A DNA stretch of 64,000 bases from an uncultured bacterium (lineage in GTDB: Bacteria; Spirochaetota; JAHITG01), in assembly GCA_965373035.1 (NCBI GenBank), contig CBDVEP010000001.1, positions 272 through 64,271 of the forward strand. Direction: 5' to 3'. The position numbers and the translations under genes were made by a program. The notes below the pieces were generated by a model. The model had not been told where the DNA came from. It made no database searches and saw only the letters and a program-made list of their open reading frames with translations. Shown piece by piece: positions 5,435 to 61,263 of the stretch (position 1 is its first letter; each line of letters opens with the position of its first letter).

Positions 5435-6682
5435 CTATTTTTCTACTTTATTTCTTTTTAAAACATCAAGTGCTGCCGGGAAAGGTGATAATACTTTTTC
5501 CAGCACACCATGCAGCATAGAAATACATACACCATAATTAGTAATAGGAACCTCATGCTCTCTTGCCTTTTGTATTCGCGACAGCATCTGCCTGCGATTC
5601 AGCATACAGCCTCCGCAGTGGATAATCAATTTATACTCTCCTAAATTATCAGGATAATCTTTACCTGCATATACCTTAATATCCAAATCAGTCCCTACAT
5701 ACTGCTTTAACCATCGTGGAATTTTTACCCTCCCAATATCATCTTCCAGAGCATGATGAGAACATGCTTCCGCAATCAGGATTTTATCATCAGGTTTAAG
5801 ATTATTAATCTGAGCAGCTCCCTTAACTGCCTCAATTAAATCACCTTTATACCTTGAAAAAAGAATGGAGAAAGTTGTACATTTTATATTAACAGGAGTA
5901 TCAGCAACCATTTTTAAAACAACTTGTGAGTCACAAACTACTATGGCAGGAGCATTTTTTAAATTATTAAGTAAGACAGGATATTCCCGCTCTTTTACTA
6001 TTAAAGCAGAAGCATCATTATCCAAAGCATCGCGTATTGTTTGTACCTGCGGCAGTATCAATCTTCCTTTTGGTGCTTCCATATCAATAGGCACTATTAA
6101 TATGCAGCTGCTTCCTGAAGGTAATAAATCACCAATCAAAGGAGGCGGTGATAGAAAATCATCGGGGCAAACTTCAATGAGATATTTTTTTAAGGTACTG
6201 ACATAAAAATTTCTTTTATCCTTATCAACACTACAGCAGAGAAAAAACCTTTTTGTCTTTTTTTTAATTTTTTTTAAAAAAGTTTTTGAAGGAATTTTTA
6301 AATCAATTTTATTAATCACAATAATTAAGGGGATTTTTCGATGCTTTGCTTCTAATACAATATCTTCTTCATAATGGTTCCAGATACCAGATTCTGCAAG
6401 CAGTATCATAATATCTGCCTGGTCAAATACTTTTTTTGTTTTTTTTATTCTTTGAGCAGCAAGAGCAGATTTATCAGATAACCCTGCAGTATCCAGAAAA
6501 AGCACAGGACCTAATGGTAAAAGCTCCATTGTCTTTTCCACTATATCTGTAGTTGTTCCGGCAACAGAAGATGTTATAGCCACATCCTGCCCGGCAATCA
6601 TATTTAAAAAACTTGATTTTCCTGCATTAGTCCTGCCAAATAAAGCAATATGTAATCTTAATGATTTAGGTGTTTTTTTCAT
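5435..6682 (-). CDS. hydF: [FeFe]-hydrogenase maturation GTPase HydF
   Basis: N-terminal GTPase (GRTNAGKSS, DTAGL, NKID). C-terminal Fe-S motif CSHH...HCGGC typical of HydF. Confidence 0.75.
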   Translation of the reverse strand: MKKTPKSLRLHIALFGRTNAGKSSFLNMIAGQDVAITSSVAGTTTDIVEKTMELLPLGPVLFLDTAGLSDKSALAAQRIKKTKKVFDQADIMILLAESGIWNHYEEDIVLEAKHRKIPLIIVINKIDLKIPSKTFLKKIKKKTKRFFLCCSVDKDKRNFYVSTLKKYLIEVCPDDFLSPPPLIGDLLPSGSSCILIVPIDMEAPKGRLILPQVQTIRDALDNDASALIVKEREYPVLLNNLKNAPAIVVCDSQVVLKMVADTPVNIKCTTFSILFSRYKGDLIEAVKGAAQINNLKPDDKILIAEACSHHALEDDIGRVKIPRWLKQYVGTDLDIKVYAGKDYPDNLGEYKLIIHCGGCMLNRRQMLSRIQKAREHEVPITNYGVCISMLHGVLEKVLSPFPAALDVLKRNKVEK

Positions 6683-6738: not shown

Positions 6739-7509
6739 TTAATCTGAATCACCGCTGATTAAATTACCTAAAAGAGACCCTCCTAATCCTGCTATTCCTC
6801 TTTGTTCCCCTTTATTTTGATAACGGGATGCAGCAAAAATCCGATCTGCTAATCTGGAAAAAGGAAGACTTTGTAAGTATATCAGTCCAGGACCTGTTAG
6901 CTTAGCCAGAAAGAGCCCTTCTCCACCAAACAATGCATTTTTAAAGCCTCCTATAAACTGGATATCATAACTAACATCAGGATGAAAAGCAACTAAACAT
7001 CCTGTATCTACACGGAGAACTTCATTTTCTTGTAATTCCTTTTTAATGATAGTTCCGCCAGCATGAACAAATGCCATTCCGTCTCCTGTCAAACGCTGTA
7101 AAATAAAACCTTCCCCGCCAAAAATGCCTGCTCCAATTTTTTTAGTAAAAGCAACCTCAATTTCAATTCCCTGAGCAGCACATAAAAAAGCATCTTTTTG
7201 ACATAAAAACTGACCTCCCATGTTATCCAGTTCCAAAGGAATAATCTTTCCTGGATAAGGAGCACCAAAAGCTACATGAGTTTTCTCATTGCTTTTATTT
7301 AAAAAGGTGGTTATAAAAAAACTTTCACCTGTTATCATTCTTTTAAACCCTTTAAATAATCCACCTCCAGTTGATGTCTGCATTTCAATACCCTGCTCCA
7401 TGTACATCATAGCCCCTACCTCTGCTCTTACTCCTTCTTCAGGATCAAGCTCAATCTCAATTAACTGCATATCATCTCCATAAATTTTATAATCAATTAT
7501 ATCTGCCAT
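6739..7509 (-). CDS. AIM24/TIGR00266-family protein (DUF124)
   Basis: Pattern MADIIDYKI..MQLIEIELDPEEGVRAEVGAMMYM characteristic of TIGR00266. Confidence 0.6.
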   Translation of the reverse strand: MADIIDYKIYGDDMQLIEIELDPEEGVRAEVGAMMYMEQGIEMQTSTGGGLFKGFKRMITGESFFITTFLNKSNEKTHVAFGAPYPGKIIPLELDNMGGQFLCQKDAFLCAAQGIEIEVAFTKKIGAGIFGGEGFILQRLTGDGMAFVHAGGTIIKKELQENEVLRVDTGCLVAFHPDVSYDIQFIGGFKNALFGGEGLFLAKLTGPGLIYLQSLPFSRLADRIFAASRYQNKGEQRGIAGLGGSLLGNLISGDSD

Positions 7510-7608
7510 TACACATCCTCCTTTTAAATATTAGACTGTGATTTAATTAAAGACTGTACCAAAAACATATAAATGAACTTTTCAGACAGCCCCTGCCTTT
7601 TCATTCCT

Positions 7609-8103
7609 TTATAATTCAATGTTGAATTGTTTAACTTTTAAAATTTTCAATATTCGATAAAGTGATTCAATAGTAATATTAGTTTTGCCCTGTTCAATTC
7701 TTGAAATATCTGATTGCTTAAATCCTGTTCGTTTTGCTAAGTCTATCTGAGTCATGTCTTTTTCAATCCTTGCTTTTTTTATTTTCTTCCCTATATCTAT
7801 CAAAAGTTGGATAGGTTTATCAATAGGTTGCTTTTTAATTAATTGTTCATAAATTGTTTCCCACCATGCAAGGAAAGTAGTTGCATGTGCAGTTTTATTC
7901 CAATATTTTTTAATCTTTGGCCATGAATTAATAAATTTTTCCTTATCTATAACTGAAAAAACTTCTTCTGGTCTATCACAATGAGAAAGTAATGTAACAA
8001 TTCTTGTTAAAAATTTAGGATGTTCAGGGTCTGGCAAAATATAATTTACTGTTTCTATTTGCGCCTGCTTATTTAAATCCCAAAAATATTTCTTTAAACT
8101 CAT
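7609..8103 (-). CDS. HTH_XRE-domain protein (putative antitoxin/regulator partner of the upstream nucleotidyltransferase)
   Basis: C-terminal XRE helix-turn-helix (DMTQIDLAKRTGFKQSDISRIEQGKTNITIESLYRILKIL). 4-nt overlap with the upstream gene. Confidence 0.55.
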   Translation of the reverse strand: MSLKKYFWDLNKQAQIETVNYILPDPEHPKFLTRIVTLLSHCDRPEEVFSVIDKEKFINSWPKIKKYWNKTAHATTFLAWWETIYEQLIKKQPIDKPIQLLIDIGKKIKKARIEKDMTQIDLAKRTGFKQSDISRIEQGKTNITIESLYRILKILKVKQFNIEL

Positions 8104-8807
8104 GATATAACACTCTCCATGAATTTTTTTATTTCATCATCTAAATATTTAATCATTATCGAAGAATCAAATTTTTTATCATATATATCAAAATCTAATA
8201 TGTTTATTTTAAGCTCCTGCCTGGAATAACTTCTATACCAGTAAATTATTCCTCTCTGTTGTTCTCTGGGCATCTTTTTTAAAAATTGATGAATAGGTAT
8301 ATAATTTTTAGATAAATAGTAAATATCAATTATATCTTTTCCCTCATTACGTCTTGTTATTTTTTCCCTTCCGATATTATCTATTTTCAAACGAGTACCT
8401 GCAATAGCCATAATTTTCTGGTAATAAATATGTTCAATATCATAGACTGCAACCTTATTAAATATATTTATAGTAGGATCACGAAAAAACACATCTTCAA
8501 TAAAATCAATTTTAAAAGTTAAATCTTTTTCAATTTCTGTTATATAAAATTTAACTTTTGCTCTGTTATTAGTAGTAAATTCATTTTCTAATTTTAATTC
8601 ATTATTTGTGACTTTTTCAAATTTAGTAACCAGATTACTAATCTCATTTTCATTATATTCATGACTAAAAAAATCAAGATCTCTTGAAAATCTATGGTGC
8701 AAATAATAAAGATCTAATGCTGTTCCACCTGCAAGTGCAAAACTATTATTATGTAAAGAAAAAACATTTAAAATATCTAATTGCAATTTTTTAATTTTTT
8801 TTTTCAT
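8100..8807 (-). CDS. Nucleotidyltransferase, AbiEii/DUF1814-like toxin family
   Basis: N-terminal LAGGTALDLYYLHHRFSRDLDFF motif typical of AbiEii-type nucleotidyltransferases. Confidence 0.5.
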   Translation of the reverse strand: MKKKIKKLQLDILNVFSLHNNSFALAGGTALDLYYLHHRFSRDLDFFSHEYNENEISNLVTKFEKVTNNELKLENEFTTNNRAKVKFYITEIEKDLTFKIDFIEDVFFRDPTINIFNKVAVYDIEHIYYQKIMAIAGTRLKIDNIGREKITRRNEGKDIIDIYYLSKNYIPIHQFLKKMPREQQRGIIYWYRSYSRQELKINILDFDIYDKKFDSSIMIKYLDDEIKKFMESVIS

Positions 8808-8949
8808 ATATTTTCAAAAATTATTATTTTAGTAAAAGTTCAAATATTATAGGTTCTAACCTATTTTTATTATAGCCTATAACCTATATTAATACATTTT
8901 TTTTCTTTTGTCAAGCTTTTTAAAAATAGATAGGGGAATATTAGACTCT

Positions 8950-9083
8950 AATTCCAGTAATGCGTAAATTACACTCACATTTTGTAGGGCGGGGATTTAT
9001 TCCCCGCCAAAAAAGGCGGTATATAAAATACCGCCCTACCATATTCCATAAAAAGAGGTGATAACTGACGCATTACTAATTCC
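8950..9083. mobile_element. MITE-like element: 6-bp direct repeat AATTCC flanking 10-bp terminal inverted repeats (AGTAATGCGT / ACGCATTACT) and a GC-rich hairpin core
   Basis: TSD at 8950-8955 and 9078-9083. TIRs at 8956-8965 and 9068-9077. Interior carries nested stem-loops (GTAGGGCGG..CCGCCCTAC, CGGGG-ATTTAT-CCCCG, GGCGGTA-TATAAAA-TACCGCC). Confidence 0.5.
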
Positions 9084-9095
9084 AAAACTTAAATA

Positions 9096-9130
9096 TTGAC
9101 ATTACATATAAATAATATATAATAATTATT
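9096..9130 (+). promoter_or_regulatory. Sigma-70-type promoter for the HDOD response-regulator gene
   Basis: TTGACA at 9096-9101, about a 16-17 nt spacer, then a TATAAT-like element. A strong SD (AAAGGAGGGGG) precedes the ATG at 9211. Confidence 0.4.
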
Positions 9131-9210
9131 ATTAAAATATCTTAATTTATAAGGGACTGTTAAGATATATTTTAACTGGAAGAAAATACTATTATAAAAA
9201 AGGAGGGGGT

Positions 9211-10392
9211 ATGGTTAGATCTATTCTTGTTATTGATAATAAAGAATTAAATAATGTATTAAAAGAGGCTTTGCCAGGTAATGATTATAAAATTCTTTTT
9301 GCTGCAGATATAAAAGAAGGGTTGAATATTCTTGCTGAAGAAAAAATTCATTTAATGATATTAAATATGAAGATGCCTGGTATTGTTGAATTTGAGTTTT
9401 TACGTGAAATAAAATCAAAATATTTTTCATTAATAAAAGTAATATCTATATTAAATGAAGATGTAAAAGAAGATATTGTTATTCGCTCTATTACAGAAGG
9501 AATGGCAAAATCGTATATTACTAAACCATGGGATAACTCGTTATTAAAAAAACAAATTGTTTCCTTATTTGCCATGCAGGAGTCTTTAAATCAAAAAGAT
9601 TTACTGGAATTAATTAATAAAATTGACGAATTGCCTGTACTTCCTTTATTATATCAAAAAGTCATGAACCTTATTCAGCAGAATAAAGGGATCAATGAAA
9701 TAGCTGATGTGATTGAAAAAGAACCAGGATATGTAGCTAAAATAATAGGAATTGTAAATTCCGCGTTTTATGGAGGAAAGATCGGTTCTGTAAAACAAGC
9801 ACTCCTTTATCTTGGGACTAATACGATTAAGGATGTAATTCTCTTTGCTGATATTTTTGAATATTTCAGGCATGCTAAAATCAAAGCCTATGATATTAAC
9901 TTGCTCTGGAAACATTTTAATCTTTGCAACAAAATTATGCAGCATCTTTATTATAAAATTCATGGAAGAAAAATATTTGATAAATTTGCTTCAACAGGAT
10001 TATTACATGATATTGGTAAATTAATTATGTTGAAATATTTTCCTGAACAATTTCGGCAGATCTGGATAAAAAAAAATAAAAACCCTGACATTCCTTTTAC
10101 TGTCATTGAAAATGATATCTTAGGAGTATCACATACCCAGCTTGGAGCTTATCTTCTCAACTGGTGGAATCTCCCCAGCTATTTTATTGAAGTCTGCCTG
10201 TATCATCATAACCCTCTTAGTCAACAAATTGTTCATAGAGAATTAATATCCTTGATTCATATTGCTGATATTTATTCATGGAAAAAATTAAAAAAATTTT
10301 TATCAGTAAAAGTAATTCCAGAAGCCTATCAAATAGCCAATATTGATGAAGCAGCAGTTCAGGAAGTAGTTAATAAAGTAGATATAAATTAA
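9211..10392 (+). CDS. Response-regulator receiver + HDOD domain protein (atypical receiver, phospho-acceptor Asp replaced by Asn)
   Basis: CheY-like N-terminus in which the usual ..DLxxMP.. reads MILNMKMPG. HDOD signature (LPVLPLLYQKVMNLIQQ.., LLHDIGKLIM). Confidence 0.6.
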   Translation: MVRSILVIDNKELNNVLKEALPGNDYKILFAADIKEGLNILAEEKIHLMILNMKMPGIVEFEFLREIKSKYFSLIKVISILNEDVKEDIVIRSITEGMAKSYITKPWDNSLLKKQIVSLFAMQESLNQKDLLELINKIDELPVLPLLYQKVMNLIQQNKGINEIADVIEKEPGYVAKIIGIVNSAFYGGKIGSVKQALLYLGTNTIKDVILFADIFEYFRHAKIKAYDINLLWKHFNLCNKIMQHLYYKIHGRKIFDKFASTGLLHDIGKLIMLKYFPEQFRQIWIKKNKNPDIPFTVIENDILGVSHTQLGAYLLNWWNLPSYFIEVCLYHHNPLSQQIVHRELISLIHIADIYSWKKLKKFLSVKVIPEAYQIANIDEAAVQEVVNKVDIN

Positions 10393-10512
10393 AATACAGA
10401 ATCTGTGTACATCTGGCGGAAAAATTTCCATGAGTCATCTTTATGCAGATATAATTTATGCTCCTTGCAGCCGCTGCGGCTGCAAAGCTGGATAAAAAAG
10501 CATTTAAAAGCA
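10339..10512. repeat. Direct repeat copy A (~175 bp, ~93% identical to 12059-12245) flanking the DUF4143 ATPase insertion
   Basis: Includes the last ~50 nt of the HDOD gene plus the 3' end of a truncated copy of the convergent Cys-rich gene. Confidence 0.7.
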
Positions 10513-10528
10513 TAGACTAAATTATCAT

Positions 10529-11854
10529 CTAAGTTTTATAAAATTTTGGAAACAAAGAAATAGCATATAATGGAATATCACAAACATTCCTTGTTTGATT
10601 AAAATTCCTTTGAGATGTTCTTGTTAAATATTCAGGATTGTATTTTTTATCATAGACTTTTAAACTTTTAGCTTTAGTATTTAATCCTGATTTTACTTCT
10701 AATGGATATATTTTTTCATTATAACTCAATATGAAATCAACTTCTGCTGTATTTTTACTTGTCCAATAATATAATTCATTAAAATTATTTACTACTAATT
10801 CTTGTGCTGCATAATTTTCTGTAAAAGCACCATTATAAAATGTGAATAATTTATTACCGTCAATAATAGTCTTAGGAGATAAATTCAGCATTGCTCCAAG
10901 TAAACCAACATCAATTAAAAATAATTTGAAAAAATTATCATTTTTATATGCAGATAATGGCAATTTCGGAGTGGAAACATTATAAGATTTATATACAACA
11001 CCTGCATCAATTAACCATTGTATCGAGTCATGATACTCTCTTGATTTAGAATTTTTACTTATTTCAGAATATTTAAATTTTTTCTTTTCTTTAATTAATT
11101 GATTTGGAATTGAATTCCAGATATTATTTATTTTTATAGCTTCAGCCCTTGATGCATATCTTGTTACATCAATTGAATAAGCTGTTAATATTTCTTTTTG
11201 AATTTTTCTTACCGAAGTATAATCTTTAGTAGTAACATATTTCACTATAGCTTCCGGCATACCTCCAATATAATAATATAATTTCAGATATTCCAATAAT
11301 TTTTCATGGAAAGCTTCTGGTATTTCATCTAAATTTTTCTTGTTATCTAAAAACTTTTTTAATTGATTTTCTTTATTTGAATTTAAAAATTCACCAATTG
11401 ATAAAGGGAATAATTGCATAAAATTCACTTTCCCAACAGGAAATGAGGTCTTTTGATTTTTATATAAAAAAATCCCCAGTAATGACCCTGTAGCAATAAT
11501 ATGGTATTCATTATGGGTTTCATTAAAATATTTTAAACATGTTAATGTTTGAGGAGAATTCTGTATTTCATCAAATATAATTAATGTGTTTAAAGGTTCT
11601 ATTTTTTTATTTGAATAAATTGATAATTTTTCAATTATTTTTTCTGGATACTTTTTTCTCTGAAACAAGTTTATCAGATCAGGGTCTTCTTCAAAATTAA
11701 AATATACATAATTGACATATTCATTTTTACCAAATTCTTTTAAAATAAAAGTCTTTCCAACCTGTCTGGCACCTTTTAATATTAACGGTTTTCTATCTTC
11801 TGCATTCTTCCATACAATTAATTTATTATATATATCACGTTTTAAGCTTATCAT
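10529..11854 (-). CDS. AAA ATPase (AAA_14 + DUF4143 'ATP-binding protein' family)
   Basis: Walker A KGARQVGKTF and a DUF4143-type C-terminus. Paralog of 24806..26047. Confidence 0.75.
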   Translation of the reverse strand: MISLKRDIYNKLIVWKNAEDRKPLILKGARQVGKTFILKEFGKNEYVNYVYFNFEEDPDLINLFQRKKYPEKIIEKLSIYSNKKIEPLNTLIIFDEIQNSPQTLTCLKYFNETHNEYHIIATGSLLGIFLYKNQKTSFPVGKVNFMQLFPLSIGEFLNSNKENQLKKFLDNKKNLDEIPEAFHEKLLEYLKLYYYIGGMPEAIVKYVTTKDYTSVRKIQKEILTAYSIDVTRYASRAEAIKINNIWNSIPNQLIKEKKKFKYSEISKNSKSREYHDSIQWLIDAGVVYKSYNVSTPKLPLSAYKNDNFFKLFLIDVGLLGAMLNLSPKTIIDGNKLFTFYNGAFTENYAAQELVVNNFNELYYWTSKNTAEVDFILSYNEKIYPLEVKSGLNTKAKSLKVYDKKYNPEYLTRTSQRNFNQTRNVCDIPLYAISLFPKFYKT

Positions 11855-11892
11855 ACATATAAATTTAATACTAAAATTTAAAAAGTCAACTT
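11855..11892 (-). promoter_or_regulatory. Promoter of the DUF4143 ATPase gene (TTGACTTTTTAAA -35 box shared with the 24806 paralog; no SD, probably leaderless or very short leader)
   Basis: On the minus strand: aagTTGACTTTTTAAATTTTAGTATTAAATTTAT-ATG. Confidence 0.4.
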
Positions 11893-12058
11893 TTTTATAT
11901 GAAAAAGGTGTAAATTTATTACTTTATTCATATGAAAAAAGTGTATGTTTTAATATTTTTCCTCCTAAAAATATAAATGTTTCAATTACAGCTGGCTAAA
12001 AAATAAGGAAAAACACATAAAAAAGGTTTTAAACTCTCCTAACATGCTTTTTCGGTTT

Positions 12059-14299: not shown

Positions 14300-14695
14300 A
14301 TGAATAAAAAAGATTTAATTAAATATTGGATTAAAAGTTCTGATCAAGATATAAAGGCAATGGATCATTTGTTTAATAATAAAGATTATCATTGGTCATT
14401 ATTCCTAGGGCATTTAGTAATTGAAAAACTTCTTAAAGCATATTATGTTAAGAAACAAAATAATAATGCACCACCTATACATAATTTATTAAGAATAGCT
14501 GAAAAATCAAAATTAAAAATTGATAACCAACAAGAAGATTTACTCGCAACATTATCTACTTTTAATATCCGAACGAGATATGATGATTATAAATTAGAAT
14601 TTTATAAAATGTGTACTAAAAATTTTACAGCAAACTGGCTCAAGCAAATAAAAAGGTTTCGAAAATGGATAAAAAAAAAATTATCAGATCAATAA
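14300..14695 (+). CDS. HEPN-domain protein (HEPN/MNT toxin-antitoxin pair)
   Basis: Size and context. Overlaps a minimal nucleotidyltransferase gene. Confidence 0.5.
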   Translation: MNKKDLIKYWIKSSDQDIKAMDHLFNNKDYHWSLFLGHLVIEKLLKAYYVKKQNNNAPPIHNLLRIAEKSKLKIDNQQEDLLATLSTFNIRTRYDDYKLEFYKMCTKNFTANWLKQIKRFRKWIKKKLSDQ

Positions 14696-16659: not shown

Positions 16660-17469
16660 TTATTTCAAAACTATCTTATTCTTCTTCAATAATGAAGATA
16701 TAATATCAGAAGCATTGCTGATTAATTCTGCATCATGCTCATCAAAGAGAAAAGGTCTGAGCTGCTCTGCCTGCTTTTTTAATTCTCCTTTTGAAAGACT
16801 TTGTATTCTTTTTATAATAATATTTTCAGGTTTATCTTTAATGCCCAGTATAGAAAGAATATGTTTATCCACAGGATGCTTATTTGAAAGCATAAAAATA
16901 ATATCATATAAATGCCGTGCCCTATTCTTTTTAACAAGAGCATCTATTTTATTAGCAAAAAGTATAGCATTATTTGTACATATACAGGGATAAATTTCTC
17001 CAAATCCGGATATACCTTTAGATTCTTGTATAACTTTCCATTTAGGCAGATTGGTTTCTAATTTAATAATTATTCCCGTTTTTTTTGAGTATTTTGATAC
17101 GATATTATAAAATTTCTCTATTGCTGGGAATATTAACTTTGAAACATACATATTATCCCAATGTGAAAATTGAACTGATGATTCTATGCCTTTTCGCTGT
17201 AATTCTTTTACTACTTTATATAAAAGATTTTCAAATTCTTTTTTAGAAATTTTATTTGCATAAAAATCTAAATCTTCTGAAAATCTTTTACTATTGTAAA
17301 TAAGTCTGAGATAAGTACCCCCTGTAAAAAAAAGTTTTTTACCTGAAGGTGTTCTATAAATTTCTTTTAAAATAAGAACATGGAGGTATTCTCTTAATAT
17401 TCCTCTTGTTTTTGTAACTGGCATTTGACGCAATCTTGCCTGTTCTATTAATGCATCATAAGTAAGCAT
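16660..17469 (-). CDS. Nucleotidyltransferase AbiEii/AbiGii toxin (type IV TA)
   Basis: KLFFTGGTYLRLIYNSKRFSEDLDFY motif. Overlaps the upstream AbiEi-like gene by 14 nt. Confidence 0.65.
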   Translation of the reverse strand: MLTYDALIEQARLRQMPVTKTRGILREYLHVLILKEIYRTPSGKKLFFTGGTYLRLIYNSKRFSEDLDFYANKISKKEFENLLYKVVKELQRKGIESSVQFSHWDNMYVSKLIFPAIEKFYNIVSKYSKKTGIIIKLETNLPKWKVIQESKGISGFGEIYPCICTNNAILFANKIDALVKKNRARHLYDIIFMLSNKHPVDKHILSILGIKDKPENIIIKRIQSLSKGELKKQAEQLRPFLFDEHDAELISNASDIISSLLKKNKIVLK

Positions 17470-18064
17470 TTAATTCCTCTAATTTAAGATTATACTGTTT
17501 TATATATTTTTTTAATTTTTTTTTATTAAAAGAAGAAATTATATCAAAGTCTAATCGTTCTTCTTGTAAGTTAAATTTTTTATTTCGGTATGTTTTAAAG
17601 TAAATAAAATCTATAAGAGCTTTTTCCGGTTCAGCAATAAAAATTTCAAACTTTCCTTGTTTTTCAATATAGTATCCTGTAAAAAATTCAGGTCTAAGAG
17701 TATGGTATATAAAAAGACCGTGAACATTTTTAAATTGGCGTGTGGGTTTTGTAGTGATAGAAGTTACAGCCATGGATACTTCCGGGATGATACTGTAATT
17801 TGACAAAGCTGTTTCTAATGACACATAAGAGGGGCTGTACAATTTGTTGGCAATATACATATCCGGGATAATATACTCATCAGGATAGGTAAGTTCATAT
17901 AATCCTTTTTTTAAAGAGCGAATCCAATTTTTTTGTTTCCATCTATAAAGCATTTGCTTAAGATTTTGCTTGTTTTCATTATAATAAAGTGTTAATAAGT
18001 CTTCAAATGAAAAAACATAATATTTGTTTTTGATTATATCTTTATATAACTGTTTAAAATTCAT
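17456..18064 (-). CDS. AbiEi-family antitoxin / transcriptional regulator
   Basis: Positioned immediately upstream of and overlapping AbiEii. AbiEi-like size and the RSLKKGLYEL motif. Confidence 0.55.
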   Translation of the reverse strand: MNFKQLYKDIIKNKYYVFSFEDLLTLYYNENKQNLKQMLYRWKQKNWIRSLKKGLYELTYPDEYIIPDMYIANKLYSPSYVSLETALSNYSIIPEVSMAVTSITTKPTRQFKNVHGLFIYHTLRPEFFTGYYIEKQGKFEIFIAEPEKALIDFIYFKTYRNKKFNLQEERLDFDIISSFNKKKLKKYIKQYNLKLEELNAYL

Positions 18065-60986: not shown

Positions 60987-61263
60987 AAAATATTGGAATA
61001 AAACTGCACATGCAACTACTTTCTTCACCTGGTGGGATACGATTTATGAACAATTAGTTAAAAAGCAACCTATTGATAAACCTATTCAACTTTTAAAAGA
61101 TATTGGGAAGAAAATAAAAAAAGCAAGAGAGTATGAGGTTCCCATCACTAATTATGGTGTATGTATTTCTATGGTACAGGGTGTATTGGAAAGAATATTA
61201 TCACTTTTTCCAGCAGCACTTGATGTTTTAAAGAGAAATAAAGTGAAAATAAAAATATCTTGA
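60987..61263 (+). pseudogene. Chimeric gene remnant: N-terminal fragment of the HTH_XRE protein (7609..8103) fused in-frame to the C-terminal fragment of hydF (5435..6682)
   Basis: Translation KTAHATTFFTWWDTIYEQLVKKQPIDKPIQLLKDIGKKIKKARE|YEVPITNYGVCISMVQGVLERILSLFPAALDVLKRNKVKIKIS*. No start codon. Junction at shared ..KKAR-E.. microhomology. Confidence 0.75.

Follow-up and report, generated by a model that had tools for sequence, protein, structure and literature searches.

The window analysed here is a 64,000-nucleotide (nt) stretch of DNA from an uncultured bacterium of the Spirochaetota lineage JAHITG01 (contig CBDVEP010000001.1), and the element in question is a pair of overlapping minus-strand genes at positions 7609 to 8807. 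Judged by sequence and predicted structure, the product of the first gene, of 235 amino acids (aa), is a nucleotidyltransferase (NTase) of the DUF1814/AbiEii family with intact catalytic motifs. The second gene encodes a partner of 164 aa, which combines a C-terminal XRE-type helix-turn-helix (HTH) with an N-terminal domain (N-domain) that is without a detectable homologue outside the partner's own family. A preliminary description of the window had proposed a distinct toxin-antitoxin (TA) or defence variant, and this was the right level of claim: the NTase fold held, and the two genes stay together at about 100 loci in uncultured bacteria of several phyla. The reading that we favour, and consider reasonably probable, is a toxin-first TA or abortive-infection module, with the NTase as toxin and a partner that both represses the operon and neutralises its product. 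The new element is the partner family together with its dual-operator promoter, and not the gene order alone.

The nucleotidyltransferase and its operon

Both genes are intact open reading frames (ORFs) on the minus strand and begin with ATG (8100-8807, 235 aa; 7609-8103, 164 aa). The NTase stop codon and the partner start codon overlap in the sequence ATGA, which suggests translational coupling. The features of the two genes are as follows, with the source of each assignment in brackets where one applies.

8100-8807, minus strand: NTase gene of the DUF1814/AbiEii family, predicted toxin, 235 aa (ORF, Pfam, PADLOC, AlphaFold2 (AF2), Foldseek)
7609-8103, minus strand: partner gene, predicted antitoxin and autorepressor, 164 aa (ORF, homologues, AF2 model)
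7834-8103, minus strand: partner N-terminal domain, residues 1-90, six helices, predicted to bind the NTase (alignments)
7642-7809, minus strand: partner XRE/Cro-C1-type HTH, residues 99-154, most closely related, among solved structures, to restriction-modification controller (C) proteins
8100-8103, minus strand: ATGA, NTase stop and partner start (sequence; the -4 overlap recurs in relatives)
8113-8118, minus strand: GGAGAG, a Shine-Dalgarno-like site 9 nt upstream of the partner ATG, within the NTase gene

In Pfam, the 235-aa protein falls into PF08843 (AbiEii), with an E-value of 5.2e-19 and 69.6 bits (cut-off 22.5), and 17 AbiEii models in PADLOC match it as well. Its AF2 model, built from 47 homologues, has a predicted local distance difference test score (pLDDT) of 89 and a predicted template modelling score of 0.86. 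The top Foldseek matches of this model in the PDB are DUF1814 proteins (JHP933, 1e-10; MenT3/TglT, 3e-6; MenT1, 1e-4), after which come ANT(2'')-Ia and Pol-beta-type enzymes, and the family profile picks up JHP933 by sequence as well (hmmsearch, 2.7e-6). The motifs that were delimited and mutated in AbiEii by Dy et al. (PMC3985639) are all present: I (hGG), II (R..DhD), III (K) and IV (+DxxD). The AbiEii-like NTase fold that the preliminary description had assigned to this protein is therefore upheld by Pfam, by the AF2 model, by structural similarity to DUF1814 proteins and by motifs I-IV. We collected 189 NTase homologues, and the conservation of the key residues among the 97 NTases from paired loci is given here.

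Motif I, G27-G28: kept in 94-95 of 97
Motif II, R39-x-S41-R-D43-x-D45: R39, S41 and D45 in 97 of 97, D43 in 94-95 of 97
Further acidic residues, D101, E104 and D105: D101 in 97 of 97
Motif III, K131: 97 of 97
Motif IV, K157-D158-x-x-D161: D158 and D161 in 97 of 97

These residues align with R63/T65/D67/D69, K173 and D192 of AbiEii, whose mutation abolishes toxicity (PMC3985639), and with R37/T39/D41/D43 of MenT1 (PMC11375011). Ser41, which lies two residues ahead of the first catalytic aspartate (S41-R-D43), occupies the position of MenT1 T39, MenT3 S78 and AbiEii T65, each of which becomes auto-phosphorylated upon binding of the cognate antitoxin (PMC11375011; bioRxiv 10.64898/2026.01.19.700257). 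Between motifs III and IV the family has a flexible, subfamily-specific insertion (residues 138-155, pLDDT about 55) with an invariant G146, followed by R153, which is also invariant among the 97. This insertion could be a substrate- or partner-binding loop. In JHP933 of Helicobacter pylori (PDB 4o8s, 4ok0), the closest relative of the NTase both in solved structure and in sequence at about 17% identity, the insertion of about 11 residues that carries G146 here is absent.

Conservation of the gene pair

The homologous loci fall into two deep clades with an identity of about 30-34% between them. Clade 1 (54 loci, from a scan with one genome per species) has 41-58% identity to the window partner and comes mostly from Omnitrophota, with further members in Elusimicrobia, Nitrospirae/Thermodesulfovibrionales, WOR-1, Ratteibacteria and others. 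Clade 2 (80 loci, from a metagenome scan) was reached through the N-domain profile search and is marked by a 'WLWD' motif and about 30% identity.

In clade 1 there are 47 loci with sufficient upstream sequence, and at 43 of them a full-length NTase gene lies directly upstream of the partner on the same strand; at one more locus (L013) the NTase ORF is slightly short at its N-terminus. For clade 2, where the NTases are 29-37% identical to that of the window, the corresponding figure is 48 of the 54 loci with more than 760 nt upstream, so that both clades together give 91 of 101. The overlap is mostly of 4 nt: of the 44 clade-1 pairs (L013 included), 36 have -4 nt, seven have -1 nt and one has 0, and 30 of 48 clade-2 pairs have -4 nt. 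Approached from the NTase side, a gene for an HTH_3 protein of 165-171 aa was found directly downstream in all six homologues sampled, with flanks that differ each time and consist mostly of housekeeping genes. Whether the two genes occur together elsewhere had been raised in the preliminary description; they do, and in the same order throughout these loci.

The two genes could in principle be unrelated neighbours, or a decaying orphan AbiEii beside an ordinary XRE regulator, and PADLOC-type rules would indeed call the NTase an orphan, with no AbiEi adjacent. Against this, the same order and overlap recur in about 91 independent loci whose surroundings are unrelated, the catalytic residues are invariant and both ORFs are intact. 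These conservation data refute the reading, to which we give next to no credence. Nor can the pair be put down to chance ORFs, since homologues are plentiful and adjacent in nearly every locus examined.

The two proteins also diverge together: across 97 pairs, the pairwise identities of the NTases and those of the partners show a correlation of r = 0.95, with 0.85 and 0.83 when each clade is taken by itself. Where the pair is broken, the losses are one-sided. Intact orphan partner genes without an upstream NTase occur among housekeeping genes (L035, L088, L095, L102, L123, L132), and other loci retain truncated NTase remnants (L019, L020, L044, L049), while no solo NTase was present among the six sampled NTase homologues. 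One-sided loss of this kind is what a toxic NTase would lead one to expect.

In the window the pair is flanked by an AIM24-family gene (6739-7509) on one side and a divergent response-regulator/HDOD gene (9211-10392) on the other, and no restriction-modification gene adjoins it. At about 25% GC, the pair is more AT-rich than the adjacent hydF and AIM24 genes (32-37% GC). The low-GC stretch extends over 7600-12000 (23-31%, with the genes to its left at 32-37%) and holds the NTase/partner pair, the response-regulator/HDOD gene and an AAA_14/DUF4143 ATPase gene (10529-11854). At a related pair elsewhere (L144), an AAA_14/DUF4143 gene and a BrnT toxin lie just upstream, a parallel to the window that may be coincidence.

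A second trace of this region lies far downstream. The preliminary description had reported the partner's N-domain as captured in a chimeric pseudogene at 60987; the partner fragment there is real, but it covers residues 66-112 only, which take in the last third of the N-domain, the linker and the first part of the HTH, and not the whole N-domain. Positions 60987-61127 (plus strand) are 92% identical to 7769-7909, with the reading frame still open, and run straight into 61113-61249, where the match, at 88% identity, is to the 3' end of hydF (5439-5576). The stretch of some 2.2 kb that separates these two parts at the intact locus is absent here, with the junction at a short CTTGC-TTTT microhomology. 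From these identities, 60987-61249 is a relic of a second copy of the pair region.

The partner and its predicted dual-operator promoter

In the AF2 model of the partner (pLDDT 89), residues 3-90 form an N-domain of six helices and residues 99-154 an XRE domain of five, joined by a linker of low confidence (91-98); HTH_3 matches residues 108-157 (E 1.9e-13). Residues 1 to about 95 gave no match in Pfam, NCBIfam, PADLOC, PHROGs or PDB sequences. The ORFs, the HTH_3 match and the lack of any N-domain match bear out what had been described beforehand, namely a 164-aa protein with a novel N-domain and a C-terminal XRE HTH that overlaps the NTase gene by 4 nt. Neither PADLOC nor Pfam returned an AbiEi match for the partner, and comparison of the N-domain with the window's own AbiEi revealed no similarity (hhalign probability 0.1%). 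The sole match of the N-domain profile among PDB sequences, GmaR (whole-sequence E 2.6e-4), was dropped as helical-repeat noise: it is made up of two pieces in a TPR-like region, neither of which reaches the threshold (best i-E 0.067).

We found 89 full-length homologues of the partner. In alignments the N-domain is strongly conserved, among others at Y6-F7-W8-D9, L39-S40-x-C42, W61-P62, W68 and W80-W81-E-T-I-Y85. When searched against 1.84 billion representative proteins, the N-domain profile returned only 99 matches; most are of about 160-190 aa, fitting the two-domain architecture, and many others are short fragments. In every protein checked the N-domain is followed by an HTH, and in the proteins checked it adjoins an NTase of this family, orphan copies excepted. 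About 95% of partners consist of N-domain and HTH alone, with no effector domain. The rare remainder carry extra C-terminal domains: Mrr_cat in two proteins of 323 aa (L142, 602-1573; L143, 504-1475), Mrr_cat with PIN-TPR-GreABC in one of 755 aa (L144, 3001-5268), where clade-2 operators are present, and Mrr_cat with TPR in the variant P0298. In L142, L143 and L144 an NTase with intact motifs still lies directly upstream of the extended partner.

The HTH is closest to that of C.Esp1396I (45-46% identity over about 60 residues), and the PADLOC 'control protein' and capH models match the partner. Upstream of the NTase gene lies a predicted promoter with two palindromes.

8886-8914, minus strand: predicted sigma-70-type promoter, with -35 TTGACA (8914-8909), a 17-nt spacer and -10 TAATAT (8891-8886)
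8872-8887, minus strand: candidate operator O1, 16-bp palindrome ATAGGTTATAGGCTAT, overlapping the downstream edge of the -10 by 2 nt
8849-8864, minus strand: candidate operator O2, 16-bp palindrome ATAGGTTAGAACCTAT, between the -10 and the start codon

The promoter scored 10 of 12 matches in a consensus scan, and TTGACA is found at the equivalent place in most homologous loci. O2 lies downstream of O1 at a distance of 23 bp centre to centre, and the operator type in the window and in most of clade 1 is ATAGGTTATAAnCTAT. Across clade 1, two ATAGnTTATAAnCTAT palindromes sit at the -10 and the transcription start and are 28-fold enriched: the density of ATAG-N8-CTAT is 16 per kb within 100 nt upstream of NTase genes and 0.58 per kb over the remainder of these loci, and at least two copies precede the NTase in 31 of 43 clade-1 loci. 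The same design is kept across phyla, with TTGACA, then ATAGGTTATAAtCTAT (often containing TATAAT) and a second copy about 22 bp downstream. Four close relatives of the window pair (L001, L002, L012, L014) have two TATGTGTTTAnnCACATA copies instead, within 100 nt upstream of the NTase. Clade 2 has a pair of its own that is no less conserved, with TACAAC-N6-GTTGTA immediately before the -35 and ATACAAC-N7-TGTAT between this hexamer and the -10. That operator pairs are clade-specific and track the HTH protein argues strongly that the partner represses its own operon, and on these comparisons we regard autorepression as likely.

Further upstream of the operon promoter, the AT-rich intergenic region contains a GC-rich double hairpin within an outer stem (8985-9038; GTAGGGCGG...CCGCCCTAC), which is unique and has a predicted energy of about -32 kcal/mol on either strand. 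It holds a hairpin that is terminator-like in that TTTTTT comes after it on the minus strand. An Rfam scan of 7400-9300, double hairpin included, gave nothing near threshold.

A partner with such a promoter could be purely a transcription factor that sets the level or timing of the NTase, much as C proteins or CapH of cyclic-oligonucleotide-based anti-phage signalling systems (CBASS) act on their own operons. The N-domain would then serve for sensing or oligomerisation, without ever contacting the NTase, and repression alone would hold the NTase in check. An HTH most like those of C proteins, the matches to the 'control protein' and capH models and the conserved dual operators over the promoter all fit this view, and our analysis yielded no sign of contact between the two proteins. 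We nevertheless think this reading, the main rival, unlikely. A generic sensor would be expected with other cargo, whereas this N-domain occurs with this NTase family and co-diverges with it at the correlation given above. The coupled 4-nt overlap fixes the stoichiometry of the two products, as is typical of neutralising pairs, and a toxin that is transcribed first from an autorepressed promoter would have difficulty establishing itself in a new host if nothing restrained it after translation.

The roles might also be reversed, with the NTase nucleotidylating (or phosphorylating) the N-domain of the partner and so switching its DNA binding; in the relatives fused to Mrr_cat or PIN it would control the nuclease activity of the partner. 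In HEPN-MNT systems MntA is a regulating NTase, and the gene order there is NTase-first. The order of the present pair recalls MntA-HepT, and the rare Mrr_cat and PIN-TPR partners do keep their NTase upstream. However, the NTase here is a full-length DUF1814 enzyme and not a minimal NTase antitoxin, and all characterised DUF1814 proteins are toxins. The partner has no HEPN match and its N-domain alignment no Rx4-6H motif, such as the HEPN toxins carry; about 95% of partners are without an effector that could be controlled, and orphan partners persist without any NTase. We therefore judge a reversal of roles very improbable, although if true it would represent an NTase-controlled transcription or effector switch analogous to MntA-HepT and built from unrelated parts. 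Elsewhere in the window, at 14300-14695 (plus strand), there is a HEPN-domain protein (Pfam 2.9e-18) that is possibly a member of a HEPN-MNT module.

Under the TA or abortive-infection reading, the pair would be a self-contained, horizontally mobile two-gene module with the toxin gene first. By analogy with its characterised relatives, the NTase would be a growth-arresting effector that adds nucleotides to the 3' ends of tRNA and so blocks aminoacylation, as MenT1, MenT3, MenT4 and AbiEii suggest; for tRNA as the target we see about an even chance. The partner, produced by translational coupling, would have two roles. Its HTH, probably as a dimer on each site as in restriction-modification controller proteins, would bind the two palindromic operators over the -10 and the transcription start and shut the operon down. 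Its N-domain would bind the NTase and hold it inactive, by occlusion of the active site, by induced auto-phosphorylation of Ser41, or both. Going by the relatives, direct contact between N-domain and NTase seems somewhat likelier than its opposite, and partner-induced phosphorylation of Ser41 is a tentative proposal. Degradation or titration of the partner, or an end to its synthesis, would free the toxin.

Several points weigh against this reading. Toxicity of the subfamily is taken over from other DUF1814 proteins, and JHP933, the closest solved relative, stands in the PDB as a putative nucleotidyltransferase only. The sample from the NTase side is small (n = 6), and the additions of Mrr_cat, PIN or TPR to rare partners are not what a plain antitoxin model predicts. 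Finally, the pair was on no viral contig or plasmid record searched: the viral contigs held no relative of the partner, and in the plasmid records the partner gave generic HTH matches only and the NTase one distant AbiEii. Nothing in these searches thus ties the pair to phage defence in particular.

Relation to known systems and wider meaning

Among the systems closest to the pair are AbiE and MenAT, whose mode of action it would share. AbiE of Lactococcus lactis and Streptococcus agalactiae has been classed as a type IV TA system, and type VII has recently been proposed for it. Both have a DUF1814 NTase toxin (here a predicted one) with motifs I-IV and a serine or threonine two residues before the first catalytic aspartate, and both are bicistronic operons with overlapping genes, inverted repeats over the promoter and a DNA-binding partner. 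In AbiE the repeats serve negative autoregulation, and the NTase is bacteriostatic or toxic, is kept in check by its partner and has a part in phage resistance; the palindromes at the predicted promoter in both clades of the present pair may play a like role. They differ in that AbiEi/COG5340 consists of an N-terminal winged HTH and a C-terminal antitoxicity domain, whereas the present partner has a C-terminal XRE HTH and an unrelated helical domain, and in that the antitoxin gene comes first in AbiE while the NTase gene comes first here and in about 91 related loci. By these two defining features, the kind of partner and the gene order, the pair stands outside AbiE proper.

The window itself offers a direct comparison. 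A canonical AbiE pair with AbiEi upstream had been noted at 16660-18064, and PADLOC, for which it served as an internal control, recognises both of its members (AbiEi, 1.3e-43; AbiEii, 2.8e-46). The genes for AbiEi (202 aa, 17456-18064, minus strand) and AbiEii (269 aa, 16660-17469, minus strand) overlap by 14 nt, and Pfam barely detects this AbiEi (AbiEi_4, E 0.035). The genome therefore carries canonical and non-canonical DUF1814 modules side by side, and their NTases share a local match of 40 residues only.

MenAT1 and MenAT3 of Mycobacterium tuberculosis share the NTase fold and the R-x-[S/T]-x-D-x-D active-site loop with the pair described here. In MenAT1 a small helical antitoxin that is not of the AbiEi type induces auto-phosphorylation of its DUF1814 toxin (PMC11375011). 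The MenAT systems differ in having the antitoxin gene first, MenA1 has no DNA-binding domain, and there is no sequence relation to the N-domain. Modification of tRNA and phosphorylation have been demonstrated for MenAT, whereas for the present pair we infer them.

SanaTA, SdenTA and RlegTA are likewise DUF1814 systems, with validated TA behaviour according to the preprint bioRxiv 10.64898/2026.01.19.700257. In its summary of Sberro et al. (2013), RlegA is encoded downstream of RlegT, so that on this account a toxin-first order is not unprecedented among DUF1814 systems. As far as that text describes them, the antitoxins of these three systems have a COG5340/AbiEi-like structure and not an XRE HTH with an N-domain. 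Judging from these accounts, both the toxin-first order (RlegTA) and antitoxins other than AbiEi (MenA1) were already known.

In organisation alone the pair resembles the type II systems HigBA, MqsRA and HicAB, which have the toxin gene first, an overlapping or close antitoxin gene, and an antitoxin made of a toxin-binding part and an XRE-type HTH that binds palindromes at its own promoter. Their toxins, however, are RNases of the RelE/ParE, MqsR and HicA folds and not Pol-beta-type NTases, and their toxin-binding parts are unrelated to the N-domain. The C proteins (C.Esp1396I, C.AhdI, C.BclI), of which C.Esp1396I has been solved as a tetramer on its natural operator, share a similar HTH and two adjacent palindromes over the promoter. 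They are single-domain proteins of about 80 residues beside restriction-modification genes, in contrast to the partner with its extra domain of 95 residues and its NTase cargo. The literature that we searched contained no description of an AbiEii paired with an XRE/HTH_3 protein, which is no proof of absence.

DUF1814/AbiEii NTases are among the most widespread toxins and abortive-infection effectors. The present pair leaves the general understanding of such modules unchanged, as the mixing and matching of toxins and antitoxins is already well known. It does bear on annotation: tools that need an adjacent AbiEi should miss the pair, so that the NTase would be taken for an orphan AbiEii and the partner for a generic HTH regulator, and the NCBI name of the partner homologues is indeed just 'helix-turn-helix transcriptional regulator'. 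The genomes affected are mostly those of Omnitrophota, along with Elusimicrobia, Nitrospirae and candidate phyla, and a profile of the N-domain would mend this.

Of wider interest is the recent proposal that structurally unrelated antitoxins all neutralise DUF1814 toxins through auto-phosphorylation at the active site, for which the pair provides an independent test. It has a third kind of partner that is unrelated in sequence to the others, an invariant serine at the acceptor position, small, tractable proteins (235 + 164 aa) and clearly defined candidate operators. That an antitoxin fold unrelated to those of AbiEi/MenA3 and MenA1 should induce auto-phosphorylation of Ser41 is, in our estimate, possible but doubtful. 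If it does, the mechanism would be general to DUF1814 enzymes, whatever the partner.

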